Source: a virus
Taxonomy: Duplodnaviria; Caudoviricetes
IMG/VR virus record: IMGVR_UViG_3300049988_000286
Span: 320,001 to 384,000 of that record
DNA: 64,000 nt
Strand: one strand, 5' to 3'
Shown one piece after another: positions 28,177 through 33,530 of this stretch (the stretch's first letter is position 1; every line of letters begins with the position of its first letter). The notes below the pieces were generated by a model. That model made no database searches and was not told the DNA's origin. It saw only the letters and a list, made by a program, of their open reading frames with translations. A program made the translations under genes and the position numbers.

Positions 28177-28662
28177 ATGAGAACCCTCATCGACCTCGTG
28201 GAAGCCGCCGCTGCAAGTAACACCCTCTTCCATTCCACCGACTTCGGTGCCGAGATTTTCCGCGACGGTCGCATCCACGCTAACTCGACCATCGACCTCT
28301 CCGCTCGTGCGGGACGTGCCTCTGACCTTCGCCACGACGCCGAGCACCACACCACTCACGGCGTCTGTGCGACACGATCCCTCTACTTCGCGAAACAATT
28401 CTCACCCACCATCTTCGCCCTTGATGTCGCAAAACTCCGGCAGCAATACCGCATCGTGCAACGCGCCGAAGCCGGGGCGTATGATCTCGCCGACGATCAC
28501 GGCGACTTCCGCATCGAAGCCGAGGAGTTCATCATCTGCCCCGGCATCGATCTCGCCCGCTTCTGCCAAGGCATCTGGATCAACGATTCACTCCGCGACG
28601 ATCCCGACCACGCTCCCCTCGCCGCCTCGCCGATGTTCCGTGGATGGTTTGCACCAGTGTAA
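28177..28662 (+). CDS. Putative internal virion protein, ART-like fold
   Basis: MRTLIDLVEA; LFHST...VCATRS...EAEEFI; TAAATA-N4-ATG. Confidence 0.6.
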   Translation: MRTLIDLVEAAAASNTLFHSTDFGAEIFRDGRIHANSTIDLSARAGRASDLRHDAEHHTTHGVCATRSLYFAKQFSPTIFALDVAKLRQQYRIVQRAEAGAYDLADDHGDFRIEAEEFIICPGIDLARFCQGIWINDSLRDDPDHAPLAASPMFRGWFAPV

Positions 28663-28669
28663 ATACCCG

Positions 28670-29110
28670 ATGAGAAATTGGATCAACCTCGTGGAAACCG
28701 CAGCGGCGAACCTCATCGTTACAGAGGGTCGCCGTTACACCTACAGTATGGGCGGCGAAGACGTAGAAACCATCGATCGTCCGTCCCGCCTTGATTTTGA
28801 AGCGATGCTGGCACGTTCCCAGTATAAGGTCTTGCGGGCTATGCTTACGGTGACTGATCTCATTATCTGGGATGCCGCTAAAGCAACTCACGATCATCCA
28901 GAATTTGGAGGTGGGGAACGTATCGTGCTCACCGCCGACATGGTGTTATACTACCCCGATGCCGACGAAAGCGACCCCGATTACGAGGAGGAACTGGACC
29001 GGCAGGAAAAATGGATCGATGAACACCCCATGTTGAAGCGTATCTACGGCGGATCGGTTCGCTCGTTCTCCTATTACGAGTTCCCAAACCTCCACATCGA
29101 AGCATATTGA
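28670..29110 (+). CDS. Putative internal virion protein (RPS/NP...LR...W...H family)
   Basis: MRNWINLVETA; paralog of 29830 and 36106; TAAATA-N4-ATG. Confidence 0.65.
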   Translation: MRNWINLVETAAANLIVTEGRRYTYSMGGEDVETIDRPSRLDFEAMLARSQYKVLRAMLTVTDLIIWDAAKATHDHPEFGGGERIVLTADMVLYYPDADESDPDYEEELDRQEKWIDEHPMLKRIYGGSVRSFSYYEFPNLHIEAY

Positions 29111-29166
29111 ACACCGACGCCGAGCACCACCCTGATCTTCGCACCGGTTTTCCACCTAAATACCGG

Positions 29167-29811
29167 ATGAGAAATTGGATCAACCTCGTTGAGGGGCTCG
29201 GTAGCGAAAAGGGGTTGGCAAAGACTCCCCAAGTCCTTGAAGCTATCTTTGCGCACATCCAACAACAAGTCGATCCCGACATCTCACGTGAGGAATTTGA
29301 CAAAGCCTATGGTGAGTTCGAACAGCGCTTGAAATTCCCTATGCGGGTCTATCGCGCCCTCTCCTTCGAAGACGCGGGATCGTTTTTCAACGCTCACACC
29401 GACGATCTCACCAACGTGTCCGACGACGAGCAGACCCGCCTCCACGCCGCAATCGAGACGATCGACTTCTCCCGCATCGGCATCTGCTGGACCGACAATC
29501 GAGCCGTCGCCCTAGCCGGGGGCGCACTCGGTGGTGGAGCCGGTAATCACGACGGCGCACACATCATCCTCGAAGCCACGATCAACCCCGATCAGTGCGA
29601 CCTCCTGACGACGATGTTTCACAACCTCACGGTCTACCAAGAAGAACACGAAATCACCCTCTATGCCAACACGCCGGTGACGATAACCGGCGTGACACCC
29701 CACTACGGGATGTCGCTGCCCATTAAGGCCAACACCGGCCCGGATCGATATGACCACCGTGCCAGCGTGGTGGATGCCCTTCGAGACGCGATGCGGGCGA
29801 TAAGGGGTTGA
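29167..29811 (+). CDS. Putative internal virion protein, ART-like fold
   Basis: MRNWINLVEG; VYRAL...GICWT...EEHEITL; TAAATA-N4-ATG. Confidence 0.6.
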   Translation: MRNWINLVEGLGSEKGLAKTPQVLEAIFAHIQQQVDPDISREEFDKAYGEFEQRLKFPMRVYRALSFEDAGSFFNAHTDDLTNVSDDEQTRLHAAIETIDFSRIGICWTDNRAVALAGGALGGGAGNHDGAHIILEATINPDQCDLLTTMFHNLTVYQEEHEITLYANTPVTITGVTPHYGMSLPIKANTGPDRYDHRASVVDALRDAMRAIRG

Positions 29812-29829
29812 CGCCCGCATAAATACTCG

Positions 29830-30243
29830 ATGCGAAATTGGATAAATCTCATCACCGAAGCCATCGAACGCGTCAACGTTCGAGGCATCGATGTTCCCGT
29901 GCTGACCAACCCCACCCGGTCAGTGCTCCGTCAATTTCTCGAAACCCAAGGAGAGTTGCGAGCGTGCGTCCACGATAATGGCGACCTGACCGTCTTCCCG
30001 TCTCGGCTCGCCACTCACGGAGATATCGACGACGATCACACCCACTATCCGATGATGATCCCCGATGCCACCACCGCGCTCTACCGTTTCGACAGCGGTT
30101 TCCCCCTTGATGATGTGGAAGCCTTCCAAGAGACGCTCAAAAGCCAGCTTCCCTCCCACCGTGGTCTGGTTCGCGCACTCGGATCGGGGTTCAAGATCGA
30201 GTTCGATACCGGCTCGATCGATTGGGAAGCAGAGGGATATTGA
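29830..30243 (+). CDS. Putative internal virion protein
   Basis: MRNWINLITEA; NPTRS..LRA...LATH; TAAATA-N4-ATG. Confidence 0.65.
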   Translation: MRNWINLITEAIERVNVRGIDVPVLTNPTRSVLRQFLETQGELRACVHDNGDLTVFPSRLATHGDIDDDHTHYPMMIPDATTALYRFDSGFPLDDVEAFQETLKSQLPSHRGLVRALGSGFKIEFDTGSIDWEAEGY

Positions 30244-30270
30244 CACGCGATCCGCGCTTCCGTATAAATA
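30240..30270 (+). promoter_or_regulatory. Sigma70 promoter overlapping a T4-type late promoter, upstream of leader/tRNA operon
   Basis: TTGACA (30240-45) - 17 nt - TATAAA (30263-68); TATAAATA 30263-70. Confidence 0.85.
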
Positions 30271-30310
30271 AAAGCATCAGGGACATGGTGTCCCCGACAG
30301 AGGTAACGAC

Positions 30311-30454
30311 ATGTTCGATCAGATCGACATTGCTGTGAACGATGAGGGCGGTTTCGCCGTCGTGTCGTCGCGCGCGTTGCCACTACTGCCGCTTCTCCCC
30401 TTGCCGCTTCTCGCGGCCGAGGGCGTTTGTGGTGATGGAGGAACGACTTTCTAA
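30311..30454 (+). CDS. Attenuator leader peptide, 47 aa, with Leu/Pro control run
   Basis: Manual translation MFDQIDIAVNDEGGFAVVSSRALPLLPLLPLPLLAAEGVCGDGGTTF*; SD GAGGT; control codons 30377-30412 TTG CCA CTA CTG CCG CTT CTC CCC TTG CCG CTT CTC. Confidence 0.8.
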   Translation: MFDQIDIAVNDEGGFAVVSSRALPLLPLLPLPLLAAEGVCGDGGTTF

Positions 30455-30496
30455 CGAGAAGGTCCAAACTTCCAGAGGTTACCCAAACCCGCCCTT
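30419..30496 (+). promoter_or_regulatory. Putative antiterminator helix (segments 2:3)
   Basis: GAGGGCGTTTGTGGT (30419-33) pairs with ACCCAAACCCGCCCTT (30481-96), which includes the terminator 5' arm. Confidence 0.6.
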
Positions 30497-30526
30497 GGCC
30501 CTGATACGGCCGATGGCGGGTTTTTT
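30488..30526 (+). terminator. Rho-independent (attenuator) terminator
   Basis: CCCGCC-C-TTGGCC loop CTGATAC GGCCGA-T-GGCGGG followed by TTTTTT. Confidence 0.85.
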
Positions 30527-30696
30527 GTTGTCTGCGGTTCCGAAGACCTCCCGAGACGATCCCATGGGATCAAAAGCGGAGTGATCGAACCGAAGGCTTG
30601 ATTACGAGTGTTGCGTGTCTCTTCGGAGATGGTCTTTGAAATTGTTGGAGAGAGAATGAAACGAGGCTCTTCGTGAGCCTCCGTTCATGGGCCAGT

Positions 30697-30772
30697 CACG
30701 CATTGGAGGAGTCAGGTCATCCTCGCGTGTCTGGGAGACACGAGAACACAGGTTCGAATCCTGTATGCGTGA
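30697..30772 (+). tRNA. tRNA-Pro(GGG), no encoded CCA
   Basis: CACGCAT/ATGCGTG acceptor, anticodon arm CGTGT-CTGGGAG-ACACG, T-loop TTCGAAT, C1:G72 and A73. Confidence 0.85.
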
Positions 30773-30796
30773 CTGGCCCATGAGCAAAAACATCGT

Positions 30797-30874
30797 CGCG
30801 CGGTAGTCCAGTCAGGTTAGGGCGTCCGGTTTGGGACCGGAAGATCAAAGGTTCGAATCCTTTTCGCGCGACCA
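30797..30874 (+). tRNA. tRNA-Pro(TGG)
   Basis: TCCGG-TTTGGGA-CCGGA; TTCGAAT; ACCA end. Confidence 0.95.
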
Positions 30875-30957
30875 TTTACATAGTTGACAAAGTAGAAACA
30901 GCGATTGACCATAATGGGGAAAGGAGTTGAGAAGAAGAGTTGAAGTAAATCGATAAT

Positions 30958-31042
30958 GCGCTCGTGGCGAAACTGGTAGCCGCGCCAGATTTAGGTTCTG
31001 GTATCTTTGGGTGTGGGGGTTCGAATCCCTCCGGGCGCACCA
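30958..31042 (+). tRNA. tRNA-Leu(TAG)
   Basis: CCAGA-TTTAGGT-TCTGG; long variable arm; ACCA. Confidence 0.95.
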
Positions 31043-31055
31043 TCGATCTTGGTAT

Positions 31056-31145
31056 GCGATCGTGGCGAAATTGGTAGCACGCGCAACGTTGAGGGCGTTG
31101 TGGAACGGAAGTTCCGTGGAGGTTCGAGGCCTCTCGATCGCACCA
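31056..31145 (+). tRNA. tRNA-Leu(GAG)
   Basis: CAACG-TTGAGGG-CGTTG; long variable arm; ACCA. Confidence 0.95.
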
Positions 31146-31156
31146 GAATACAAGAT

Positions 31157-31242
31157 GGGGACGTGGCGAAATTGGTAGCACGCGCAGGTTTCAGAAACCT
31201 GTGCCGCAAGGCGTGAGGGTTCGACCCCCTCCGTCCCCACCA
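31157..31242 (+). tRNA. tRNA-Leu(CAG)
   Basis: CAGGT-TTCAGAA-ACCTG; long variable arm; ACCA. Confidence 0.95.
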
Positions 31243-31259
31243 TCGACTGTAGTGATGAT

Positions 31260-31346
31260 GCCGGTGTGGCGAAATTGGTTATACGCGCAGCATTCAAACC
31301 GCTGTGTCCTCCGGGCGTAAGAGTTCGAGTCTCTTCACCGGCACCA
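31260..31346 (+). tRNA. tRNA-Leu(CAA)
   Basis: CAGCA-TTCAAAC-CGCTG (31:39 mismatch); long variable arm; ACCA. Confidence 0.9.
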
Positions 31347-31358
31347 TCAACACAGTTA

Positions 31359-31435
31359 CGGGGATTAGGGAAGTAGGTCATCCCGTCTCATTCGGTATGA
31401 GAAGATCGTCGATTCGAATTCGGCATCCCCGACCA
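31359..31435 (+). tRNA. tRNA-Pro(CGG)
   Basis: TCTCA-TTCGGTA-TGAGA; C1:G72; ACCA. Confidence 0.9.
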
Positions 31436-31463
31436 TTATTGGTGCTTCCGTGATAAATACTTC

Positions 31464-32021
31464 ATGGAAAACGAACGCACCACAAAAGTCTGCTCCCGCT
31501 GTAAAGAGGAGAAGCCTCTCGACAACTTCGGTCTGCGTTGGGGAAGCTCTAGAGATGTCCGCTATCCTACTGCGCAGTGTAAAAGCTGCCGAGCAGTCGT
31601 CCGTGCTGAAAAGGGTTGGAACCCTTCAAAAGAAGCGCGTGATCGAGAGAAGGTTAGAGCGCGGGAAATCAGGAAGCGGAAACGCCGTGATCCTGCCTTT
31701 GTCGGTAAACACATCCTTGAAGACTCTAGGCGCTACGACCGCAAGAAAGGCTTTTCGAACGACCTCGATCTCGCTTTCATCGAAGATCAGATTAAGGATG
31801 GCTGCTCATACTGCGGCGACACAGAGATGCGTCCCTCTCTCGACCGTATCGACAACGATCGCGGTCATCTAAAGGACAACGTGGTGGCCGCGTGTGTGCG
31901 CTGCAATCTGGTTCGAGGGAACATGCCCCACGCGGCGTGGTTGGAATTGTGCGAAGGGATGCGCCGCGCCCGTCTCAAGGGGTTGTTCGGCGATTGGCAG
32001 GGTAAATTCATCAGAAAATAA
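31464..32021 (+). CDS. HNH-type homing endonuclease within tRNA locus
   Basis: N-terminal C..C zinc finger; CSYCG...LDRIDNDRGH..DNVVAAC..CN; TAAATA-N4-ATG. Confidence 0.8.
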   Translation: MENERTTKVCSRCKEEKPLDNFGLRWGSSRDVRYPTAQCKSCRAVVRAEKGWNPSKEARDREKVRAREIRKRKRRDPAFVGKHILEDSRRYDRKKGFSNDLDLAFIEDQIKDGCSYCGDTEMRPSLDRIDNDRGHLKDNVVAACVRCNLVRGNMPHAAWLELCEGMRRARLKGLFGDWQGKFIRK

Positions 32022-32049
32022 TATTGGCGGCGGTGCTTATATCTTCTAC

Positions 32050-32376
32050 ATGACGGTCATGAGCGATCCTATAGCATTGGAAATGTCTGAAGGCTTTGTC
32101 CTTGAGGTATTGTACATAGCATTGATAGAGTGGAAGGTTCCACTACCCTCGATTTCGAGGAGCCTTCCTGTGCATTCATCGTCAAAGTTCGACGGCGAGC
32201 AGGAAGCACTTTGGCAGCAAATTATAATGGACCCTCGATTTAGCCAGTTGCTTTTCGCGAACGAACCAGTGGTTTCAATCAGCGCACGCAACATTGTAAT
32301 GAGCAATGCGCAAATCGGTATAGAGCCGTTTATTAAGGCTTATGCTGATTATCTAGTAGTGGTCGGTTCTTCGTAG
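32050..32376 (+). CDS. Hypothetical protein, lower GC
   Basis: Fills the gap between HNH and tRNA-Leu(TAA). Confidence 0.45.
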   Translation: MTVMSDPIALEMSEGFVLEVLYIALIEWKVPLPSISRSLPVHSSSKFDGEQEALWQQIIMDPRFSQLLFANEPVVSISARNIVMSNAQIGIEPFIKAYADYLVVVGSS

Positions 32377-32379
32377 AGC

Positions 32380-32465
32380 GCGGGCATGATGAAAAGGTAG
32401 CCGTGGGGGACTTAAAATCCTCCGCTCGAAAGAGCGTCCCGGTTCGATTCCGGGTGCCCGCACCA
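32380..32465 (+). tRNA. tRNA-Leu(TAA)
   Basis: GGGGA-CTTAAAA-TCCTC; variable arm GCTCGAAAGAGC; ACCA. Confidence 0.9.
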
Positions 32466-33017
32466 CTAAATCGCTTTGACGAACGATCCATCTGGCACCA
32501 CGGCGGAGACGCTCCCCGCATCCTCGCCTTCATTGTCGTAGTAGCATCCCCGATCAGCCGTTCCCATGGCTTTCTGTTTGATCATCCAGCGATTGGCGTG
32601 ATCGTCAGTAAGGGGATTATTGGGTTTGTTCTTCATCGCGCCGACGATGTGGTAACCTTGGATCGACGGTCGAGCAGTCAGGGCGACTTGTTCCCGGTTA
32701 CTAAAGACGGCGCGCTCAAGGCCGTTCTCGGGCAGGAAATCTTCTACTGGGAGCCGCGCGTTGAACCCAGTGGCCCATCTTCCCAAGCGTTTGAGGGTCT
32801 GGCTACCGGCGAGCATGGTCTTGCCATACTCGGAACCACCGTCCCAATCGTGACCATCGGCCCTTACGCCGATGCGTGCTTCGAGGGCTTCCCGTGCCGC
32901 GTCCCGTGATCCGAGATGGAGGCCGTAATGGGAGCCGCGAAGATCACCCGATGGTGAGCCATGCCAGAACACGATCGGGACGGAGGCTTCGCAGATGAGG
33001 TCGATGAGGTAGCGCAT
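32466..33017 (-). CDS. Putative internal virion protein, ART-like (HGS motif)
   Basis: MRYLIDLICEA; FWHGS...GLHLG...EGED..S...V; TAAATA-N4-ATG. Confidence 0.55.
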   Translation of the reverse strand: MRYLIDLICEASVPIVFWHGSPSGDLRGSHYGLHLGSRDAAREALEARIGVRADGHDWDGGSEYGKTMLAGSQTLKRLGRWATGFNARLPVEDFLPENGLERAVFSNREQVALTARPSIQGYHIVGAMKNKPNNPLTDDHANRWMIKQKAMGTADRGCYYDNEGEDAGSVSAVVPDGSFVKAI

Positions 33018-33083
33018 CGGATATTTAGCGCTTGACCGAACTCTGCTAATCAATTATAGCGGTGGTCGAAACGGAGACACCCC

Positions 33084-33278
33084 ATGCTCGCAGTCAACGA
33101 TCTCGTCCACGCCACCATTATCGAGAACGGCTACTGGAAGGATTCCTGCAAGGGGAAGATCGTCGGCGAGACCGCCAACTTCTGGATTGTCGAGAGCCAT
33201 CACTGGCGCTTCAACAACAAGACCAAGCGTTTCGCCAAGGAGGGCGGCAACCTCTCCAAGCGCGAGCCGAAGGTTTAA
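33084..33278 (+). CDS. Hypothetical protein
   Basis: GGAG SD; promoter at 33032. Confidence 0.65.
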   Translation: MLAVNDLVHATIIENGYWKDSCKGKIVGETANFWIVESHHWRFNNKTKRFAKEGGNLSKREPKV

Positions 33279-33490
33279 CCCCTCCACGCCAGCCAATACA
33301 TCAGTGCGTCGGCTTCATCGCGAAACACTATTCTCCCCTCCGACACATGGACGAGCGACGAAGTATTGTCCGCGCACCATGCTATCGCCGCCCGCGCCTC
33401 TTGCGACCATCTACCGAAGGGGTGATCGACCTCGATCACCCACTCCTTGACGAGGGTCCGATACATCCGGGCAGCGCGAGGCGGGGTCAT
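33275..33490 (-). CDS. Small hypothetical protein, family B
   Basis: WCADNT...VFRDEADALMYWLAW. Confidence 0.65.
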   Translation of the reverse strand: MTPPRAARMYRTLVKEWVIEVDHPFGRWSQEARAAIAWCADNTSSLVHVSEGRIVFRDEADALMYWLAWRG

Positions 33491-33530
33491 GCGGGTTCGT
33501 TAGATCACGCGAGGTCGAGAAAGCAAATAG

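Follow-up and report, generated by a model that had tools for sequence, protein, structure and literature searches.

Classical leader-peptide attenuators are known from enterobacteria, where trpL, hisL, leuL, pheL and pheM (pheST) are joined by the multivalent leaders thrL (Thr/Ile) and ilvL (Ile/Val/Leu). tRNA genes, according to the textbooks, are controlled at the promoter level through growth rate and the stringent response and not by attenuation, and to our knowledge the regulation by phages of their own tRNAs is essentially unstudied. Here we analyse an element at positions 30240-31435 of a 64,000-nucleotide stretch of DNA (the window; bases 320,001-384,000 of the IMG/VR record IMGVR_UViG_3300049988_000286, approximately 57% G+C), in which a promoter, a 47-codon leader open reading frame (ORF) with 12 consecutive Leu/Pro codons and an intrinsic terminator precede seven tRNA genes for Pro and Leu, all on the plus strand. 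The record represents an uncultured, leaf-associated phage whose genome of 499,572 bp is complete by the CheckV estimate. From folding models and codon comparisons we consider it likely that the element is a ribosome-mediated, leader-peptide transcription attenuator placed before a tRNA operon, and we propose that the phage probably makes these tRNAs only when ribosomes decode Leu/Pro codons slowly.

The locus resembles the classical attenuators in its promoter, in a short ORF with clustered regulatory codons and in mutually exclusive helices chosen by ribosome position, and it resembles the multivalent thr and ilv leaders in that codons of several amino acids are mixed. It differs from the known attenuators in its tRNA cargo, its per-isoacceptor codon diversity and its phage carrier: classical attenuators control biosynthetic enzymes or synthetases, whereas the Leu/Pro element precedes tRNA genes, and classical leaders repeat one codon, whereas the Leu/Pro leader is diversified, with a codon for each cargo isoacceptor. 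The element also has no sequence match to any Rfam amino-acid leader family (Leu, His, Thr, Trp). T-box riboswitches choose between terminator and antiterminator by binding uncharged tRNA directly, with no need for translation, and share with the element the tuning of translation-related genes to tRNA charging; no T-box was detected at the Leu/Pro locus.

Classical attenuation has been the subject of modelling (PMC1183508), and related designs extend beyond the amino acid biosynthesis operons. In mycobacteria, leaderless polycysteine short ORFs are Cys-responsive attenuators (10.1101/834739). These resemble the MNT-type sister leaders described below in having the sensing ORF at the 5′ end of the transcript and in depending on ribosome speed at cognate codons, but they control protein genes of Cys metabolism in a bacterium; the Leu/Pro leader is itself not leaderless, because it has a 35-nt 5′ untranslated region (UTR) and a Shine-Dalgarno sequence. 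In the Salmonella mgtCBR operon, the Pro-codon leader ORF mgtP couples ribosome progress to alternative stem-loops, which govern transcription of what lies downstream (PMC3641672); it senses proline supply on behalf of a virulence and Mg2+ transport operon, and is not known to have tRNA cargo or a per-isoacceptor codon set. Finally, phage tRNAs have been presented as replacements for cleaved or degraded host tRNAs (PMC10264068, eLife 2023; PMC12409363, on PARIS AriB). The topic of these two reports, in the parts accessible, is what phage tRNAs do and not how their expression is controlled. The host-tRNA cleavage they treat is a plausible trigger for a Leu/Pro switch. A search of the full-text literature, with subscription journals mostly outside its scope, found no description of leader-peptide control of tRNA genes, phage or cellular, in agreement with an earlier note on this DNA, written from the sequence alone, which knew of no attenuator-controlled tRNA operon in a phage.

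Leader anatomy and codon content

Read directly from the sequence, the leader region opens with a sigma70-type promoter at 30240-30268, in which TTGACA (30240-45) and TATAAA (30263-68) are separated by a 17-nt spacer and from which transcription is predicted to start at approximately 30276. The 5′ UTR contains a hairpin, GGGACA-TGG-TGTCCC (30280-30294; folding energy -8.4 kcal/mol), and the Shine-Dalgarno sequence GAGG (30300-03), which lies 7 nt upstream of the ATG at 30311. The leader ORF comprises 47 codons followed by TAA (30311-30454, stop codon at 30452-54), and its control codons form a single run of 12 consecutive Leu/Pro codons at 30377-30412 (TTG CCA CTA CTG CCG CTT CTC CCC TTG CCG CTT CTC). 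Leu and Pro are confined to this run, the other 35 residues of the peptide being free of either. The run starts 320 nt upstream of the genome's only Pro/Leu tRNA array (30697-31435), in which ARAGORN identifies, in order, Pro-GGG, Pro-TGG, Leu-TAG, Leu-GAG, Leu-CAG, Leu-CAA and Pro-CGG, and all seven anticodon classes of the array are represented among the 12 codons. The promoter, Shine-Dalgarno sequence, 47-residue ORF, single Leu/Pro run and cognate leader codon for every array tRNA that the earlier note had described are thus all present.

The leader peptide belongs to no Pfam family and has no homologue among 5.8 billion proteins. Two overlapping frames, an antisense ORF of 128 residues (30081-30467) and an ORF of 80 residues in the +3 frame (30342-30584), were considered and rejected as coding, as both are without a Shine-Dalgarno sequence and overlap the upstream gene or cross the terminator.

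The arrangement of leader and array is real and far beyond chance. Leu and Pro account for 13.2% of the codons (0.132) in 491 long phage ORFs, a frequency from which about 3e-5 Leu/Pro runs of 12 codons would be expected per genome; across all six frames of the whole genome, only two Leu/Pro runs reach at least 8 codons, and the 12-codon run is unique. If 12 Leu/Pro codons were drawn at random at phage usage, all seven anticodon classes would be covered with P = 0.05 and the first eight codons would all be distinct, as they are in the leader, with P = 0.004, while the absence of Leu and Pro from the other 35 residues has a chance probability of 0.868^35, or approximately 0.007. The absence of TTA from the run, which the earlier note had taken as meaningful given that tRNA-Leu(TAA) lies outside the array, does not survive the same treatment: it is without statistical weight because TTA makes up 2% of phage Leu codons, the probability of finding no TTA among eight Leu codons being approximately 0.85.

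Competing helices and ribosome position

Folding of the leader RNA yields a protector, an antiterminator and a terminator that are built from overlapping segments, are mutually exclusive and have comparable energies. The protector (1:2) hairpin at 30398-30423 pairs 30398-30407 with 30413-30423 (-16.5 kcal/mol as a hairpin) and has an outer helix between 30388-92 and 30429-33. The antiterminator (2:3; 30415-30500) joins 30415-30433 to 30481-30500 in a duplex of -31.9 kcal/mol, with a core of 11 contiguous base pairs (30415-25 with 30490-30500), and encloses a hairpin at 30436-30474 that contains the leader stop codon. The intrinsic terminator (3:4; 30485-30526) consists of a stem of 9+6 base pairs (15 bp, 30485-30523; -26.4 kcal/mol) and a U6 tail (T6 in the DNA, 30521-26), and a 170-nt spacer (30527-30696) separates it from the first tRNA; within this spacer the promoter scan found no promoter-like site and the Rfam search no significant match (best E = 0.3). 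Over 30375-30527, the protector-plus-terminator state folds with -68.1 kcal/mol and the forced antiterminator state with -62.2 kcal/mol, an energy gap as small as in classical attenuators. These structures substantiate the pairings drawn in the earlier note, namely a GC-rich, U6-tailed terminator (placed there at 30488-30526), a segment just after the control codons that pairs with the terminator 5′ arm, and the control-codon segment as its alternative partner. A covariance scan of 29000-33500 against Rfam (E ≤ 1) returned tRNA-clan matches and two chance-level matches only, and no leader, T-box or other cis-regulator. Directly 3′ of the upper protector hairpin lies the U-rich CGTTTGTGGT, and the promoter/terminator scan flagged this hairpin as terminator-like; hairpin and U-rich stretch together could act as a pause site that synchronises polymerase and ribosome.

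The antiterminator pairing is strongly non-random: among 2000 dinucleotide shuffles of 30413-30480 paired against the terminator 5′ arm, none is as good as the broader antiterminator segment (-29.5 versus -16.7 ± 2.9). The extended protector duplex (-25.3 versus -19.8 ± 3.3) has only a small advantage over recodings of the run with synonymous codons, of which 107 of 2000 (5%) are as good. The latter figure would be compatible with a pyrimidine-rich tract having come to lie beside a terminator by chance, as would the fact that pyrimidine-rich sequence in the right frame gives Leu and Pro codons. Such an origin would, however, have to account for the sole run of its kind in about one million codon positions standing beside the sole Pro/Leu tRNA array, in frame with a Shine-Dalgarno sequence and an ATG, and for the antiterminator complementarity, as well as for the permutation tests and the strain conservation presented below, and we regard it as exceedingly improbable.

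To relate the helices to translation, a ribosome footprint was blocked at each leader codon in turn and base-pair probabilities were computed, in an equilibrium model of what is in reality a kinetic decision. The terminator has a probability of 0.96 without a ribosome, and equally so with the ribosomal A site before the run, after the run or at the stop codon. The antiterminator appears only with the A site between approximately 30383/30386 and 30404, peaking at 0.93 at CCC 30398 and TTG 30401, and changing the footprint size, the temperature or the 5′ end displaces this sensitive interval by one or two codons, always within the run. In silico, the switch therefore flips only with a ribosome in the Leu/Pro run; folding with and without a footprint over the control codons had been proposed as a check in the earlier note. 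The modelled switch does not respond to a ribosome stalled on the first TTG, on CCA, or on the final CTT or CTC; further copies of TTG, CTT and CTC, but none of CCA, lie within the sensitive interval. A scan of equilibrium structures of the nascent RNA, without the terminator 3′ arm, was dropped, as it gave no discrimination between ribosome positions.

The locus thus combines a promoter and a short translatable ORF, clustered cognate codons, a terminator, exclusive helices and an in silico flip that is specific to stalling within the run. The classical 1:2 / 2:3 / 3:4 layout recognised in the earlier note is one on which the helices, the shuffle control, the ribosome scan, strain conservation and codon/tRNA co-variation agree, and the analysis shows the parts in the sequence, helices that compete, a switch that depends in silico on where the ribosome stands, and leader codons that co-vary with the tRNAs behind them. 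Leader translation, stalling and read-through, which we infer from these, would proceed as follows. Host sigma70 RNA polymerase would start near 30276, and a ribosome would load at the Shine-Dalgarno sequence and ATG 30311 and translate the 47-codon leader. Under fast Leu/Pro decoding it would reach the TAA, whereupon the protector 30398-30423 would sequester segment 2 behind the ribosome, the terminator 30485-30523 with its U6 tail would form and transcription would end before the tRNAs. If a cognate charged tRNA were scarce, a stall with the A site at approximately 30386-30404 would melt the protector and leave 30415-33 free to pair with the terminator 5′ arm at 30481-30500, allowing read-through into the seven tRNA genes, and the new phage tRNAs would relieve the stall in a negative feedback.

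A family of codon-matched leaders

The Leu/Pro element does not stand alone: it belongs to a family of leaders with codons matched to their tRNAs, which recur across the genome and in other phages. The strict promoter motif TTGAC[AG]-N16-18-NATAAA[TC] occurs 8 times in the 499,572 bp, with 6 occurrences heading tRNA clusters, and six other tRNA clusters of the genome have the same rare promoter followed by a short leader with codons matching their own tRNAs. The leader MNTNTTFVAGRGVVANRANRG heads tRNAs for Met, Gly, Val, Gly, Arg, Arg, Val, Asn, Ala, Asn and Ala; MNTTTSSTTISWSITFG heads Ile, Ile, Trp, Thr, Thr, Ser, Ser and Ser; MNTQSHHTYYHYHA heads Tyr, His and His; MNTTYTLMERERSIG heads Glu and Glu; MSTMTLSTRKRKRL heads three Lys tRNAs; and a leader ending ...EAQRQQR heads two Gln tRNAs. 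When leaders and cargoes are arranged as a matrix, the true pairing ranks first among 5040 permutations.

The sister ORFs mostly start ATG AAC ACG, with the ATG 7 nt after the -10 hexamer, and are therefore probably leaderless. We defined in this analysis an 'MNT' cassette family by the start ATG AAC AC(N) (Met-Asn-Thr) and the promoter (-35 TTGAC, -10 (T/G/C)ATAAAT). The Leu/Pro locus has this promoter and, as in the MNT cassettes, its leader codons match the downstream tRNA set; its promoter furthermore has GTATAAATAAAAGCAT in common with that of the Ile/Trp/Thr/Ser leader. The leaderless ATG AAC AC(N) start is absent, ATC standing in place of the ATG of the Ile/Trp/Thr/Ser leader; the locus instead has a hairpin-bearing UTR, a Shine-Dalgarno sequence and an ORF of greater length. 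The Leu/Pro unit looks like a derived variant of the MNT cassette.

The sister leaders also bear on a simpler account, in which promoter, 47-codon ORF and terminator are a self-contained small gene, for instance for a hydrophobic Leu/Pro-rich peptide, with the tRNAs transcribed independently and the codon match incidental or due to shared codon bias. The ORF does have a good Shine-Dalgarno sequence and a strong terminator of its own, and a gene caller predicts it as a protein. Yet the six sister leaders, whose peptides are unrelated, each match the tRNAs behind them, no Leu or Pro codon stands in the ORF outside the run, the peptide is without homologue or domain and the promoter scan found no promoter-like site between 30526 and 30697; a plain gene would, in addition, leave both the antiterminator/protector complementarity and the run-specific switch unexplained. 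We accordingly judge a small gene to be a poor candidate, and attenuation of the tRNA operon accounts better for the same features.

The same cassette is found in other phages. A search by promoter/start pattern in IMG/VR and metagenome contigs recovered it from contigs of 30-60% G+C; a first, AT-rich version of the pattern had been abandoned, as it gave chance matches only. The leader MNTNTTSITTIWSSTFG (locus L010) heads Ile, Ser, Trp, Trp, Ile, Thr, Thr and Thr; MNTNFTSIRLDEREEDTFQR, with a terminator, heads Asp, Glu and Glu (L014), and two further Asp/Glu units (L026, L076) resemble it; MNTKRKFLRTTSEGFEG, again with a terminator, heads Lys (L020). A Phe/Trp/Tyr leader heads Trp, Phe and Tyr (L016), a Val/Ile/Ala leader heads Val and Ile (L025) and a Phe/Ser/Gly/Tyr leader heads Tyr, Phe, Ser and Gly (L046). 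Over 15 leader-array pairs, which are not independent because some are homologous to each other, 0 of 200,000 permutations reach the observed match between codons and tRNAs, and canonical intrinsic terminators lie just 5′ of the tRNAs in many cassette units. In the cultured Caulobacter phage CcrBL9, the hypothetical protein gp149 (39 residues) precedes 12 tRNAs (Pro, Thr, Lys, three Leu, His, Ala, three Ser and Trp); 33 of 38 of its residues belong to the eight amino acids of these tRNAs, and a codon for each of the 12 anticodons is present in it.

Several family members have further peculiarities. In the Lys, Glu and Gln leaders (genome 267650, c453674 and c68422) Arg CGN codons are interspersed among the sensing codons, an arrangement also seen in L014, L020, L026 and L076 (patterns RKRKR, ERER, QRQQR, DEREED and KRK), and no Arg tRNA follows; the Arg codons could be slow-decoding spacers, a structural constraint or a second sensed tRNA. 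Between Ile/Thr/Ser/Trp leaders and the first tRNA lies a structured RNA of approximately 240 nt (genome c403227-403480; also L010 and L028), with a CUCUUUGACAUGG box conserved in phages of 41-57% G+C. Directly 5′ of tRNA-Ile(UAU), a minigene ATG CAC CAG TTG ATA TGA (MHQLI; genome c393144-393200), in which the rare ATA is the last sense codon, recalls the bar minigenes of lambda.

Conservation in close relatives

Two relatives from independent samples, contigs X2 and X3, cover the Leu/Pro leader and are too close to it to test co-variation. In both, the leader has changed less than the gene and the tRNA region that adjoin it: X2 has 1 difference in 169 nt of leader versus 3.8% in these surroundings (p = 0.014), and X3 has 6 differences in 384 nt versus 4.8% (p = 0.003). 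The two terminator substitutions of X3 (30502 T>G and 30503 G>A) both fall in the loop. The co-variation of control codons with tRNA identities that the earlier note had proposed to look for is seen in the sister leaders of this genome and of other phages, while for the Leu/Pro leader itself the comparison extends to near-identical strains, in which it is conserved above background.

Observations against the attenuation model

Several results weigh against the reading of the locus as an attenuator that senses its own cargo. In the ribosome scan, five of the seven isoacceptor classes have a clear sensitive position, Leu-TAG (CTA) is marginal and Pro-TGG (CCA) has none; the sensitive interval begins downstream of CCA and, marginally, of CTA, sensing is not demonstrable for every isoacceptor, and the earlier proposal that loss of any Leu or Pro isoacceptor is detected is borne out in the model for five classes. 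The seventh gene of the array, tRNA-Pro(CGG) (31359-31435), has no Rfam tRNA match even at E ≤ 10, whereas the Rfam model matches the first six. ARAGORN gives it a complete cloverleaf with an encoded ACCA, in which position 37 is U and A53 pairs with U61. This tRNA may be decaying or atypical, or its anticodon loop may be altered; the seven Pro/Leu tRNAs listed in the earlier note are all found by ARAGORN, the last without Rfam support. Within the array, a TTGACA at 30884 is followed by a 20-nt spacer and CATAAT, and although the promoter scan did not flag it, an internal promoter could be present there.

Homologous Leu/Pro leaders were not found beyond the near-identical strains by locus, pattern or protein searches: searches for related loci with the upstream protein and with the downstream endonuclease gave no match, and a degenerate DNA pattern for L-P-L-L-P-L-L-P-L-P-L-L gave chance matches, none of them beside Leu/Pro tRNAs among the matches listed. 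The equilibrium scan of MNT-type leaders was mixed, with a switch for L016 and L046, a partial one for L076 and none for L014, L020 and L026, and we therefore do not claim the same thermodynamic switch for all family members; the family may lack one uniform mechanism, or simple equilibrium folding may be inadequate to capture the mechanism.

These last results are relevant to the alternative that the leader regulates the tRNAs by other means, such as Rho access, RNase processing or precursor stability, or that its transcript or peptide acts in trans. Three terminator-bearing MNT-type leaders show no switch, the sister leaders for Ile/Trp/Thr/Ser, His/Tyr, Lys and Gln in this genome are without a canonical U-tract terminator, and trans-acting attenuator RNAs and leader peptides are reported from Sinorhizobium (PMC6614838, PMC7298713). 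At the Leu/Pro locus itself, by contrast, the terminator is canonical and strong, the antiterminator covers its 5′ arm with 11 perfect pairs and the switch is specific to the control codons, so that we consider a different mechanism unlikely here and retain transcription attenuation as the explanation of the Leu/Pro unit.

Neighbouring genes and genome setting

The first gene of the array, tRNA-Pro(GGG), is without an encoded CCA and lies within an extended inverted repeat, GGGCCAGTCACGCA ... TGCGTGACTGGCCC (30688-30782), by virtue of which its acceptor helix could extend by approximately 8 bp in the precursor; this precursor may be an unusual processing substrate. Downstream of the array, an ORF of the endonuclease VII / HNH type (31464-32021; phrog_1035, E = 1.6e-24) separates it from tRNA-Leu(TAA) (32380-32465, ARAGORN) and is probably a mobile insertion. 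The 'HNH gene' of the earlier note is supported in so far as PHROG endonuclease VII and HNH families match this ORF; no Pfam family does. A promoter-like site at 31994-32022 (TTGGCA-17-AATAAT, 10 of 12 matches), at the end of the endonuclease ORF, could drive a short ORF region and tRNA-Leu(TAA) apart from the attenuated array. At least five tandem paralogous ORFs flank the array (28177-30243 on the plus strand and 32466-33053 on the minus strand); their products start with or contain (KY)PMRNWINLVE / MRTLIDLVE / MRYLIDLICE, have no Pfam or PHROG match and yielded no relative in the related-locus search.

The genome contains 41 tRNAs identified by ARAGORN, plus several found by Infernal or by relaxed ARAGORN alone, and these are grouped in amino-acid-specific blocks. 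It also carries a tmRNA gene (genome 15556-15913) and two tRNAs with a CUA anticodon (amber suppressors; genome 102238-102314 on the plus strand and 106351-106425 on the minus strand), and a 266-kb relative (G001, locus L013) likewise carries two tRNAs with this anticodon; TAG may be a sense codon in part of the genome. Phage-type functions, for example a class Ia ribonucleotide reductase, are encoded in the window. The phage DNA is present in a leaf metagenome and partly in a second phyllosphere run and two other runs. The only hints to a host are a weak similarity of its tRNAs to those of Caulobacter and Rhodobacter phages and the design in common with CcrBL9, and the alphaproteobacterial host named in the earlier note is a guess.

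Discussion

The leader of the Leu/Pro operon would sense the supply of charged tRNA whatever the cause of its shortage. Scarcity could arise from a mismatch of codon usage, from decay of host tRNAs during infection or from tRNA-cleaving defences, and a link to anticodon nucleases in particular is one that we infer. More speculatively, and at less than even confidence, large phages might possess a modular, reusable sensor of decoding capacity, composed of a promoter/start module, a swappable leader and a terminator switch, in which at least one codon per cargo isoacceptor would make the leader an OR gate, and tRNA sets would be launched only when the matching host tRNAs are depleted by anticodon nucleases, other tRNA-cleaving defences or infection-induced decay. 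If this is true, the Leu/Pro unit would be one such sensor, working as a circuit of direct and inducible counter-defence and at the same time giving a natural readout of the host tRNAs that are attacked.

The idea is directly testable, and the same design is present in cultured Caulobacter phages; the cassettes, being short modular parts, would also be usable as synthetic sensors of specific tRNA pools. A codon-by-codon readout of decoding speed that is answered by the matching tRNAs would, if true, be a new homeostatic logic for translation capacity, and it would explain the amino-acid-specific sorting of tRNA blocks in giant phages. It would also bear on the long-debated question of why phages carry tRNAs at all, whether for codon compensation or for the replacement of degraded or cleaved host tRNAs, because it would make the controlling signal measurable.

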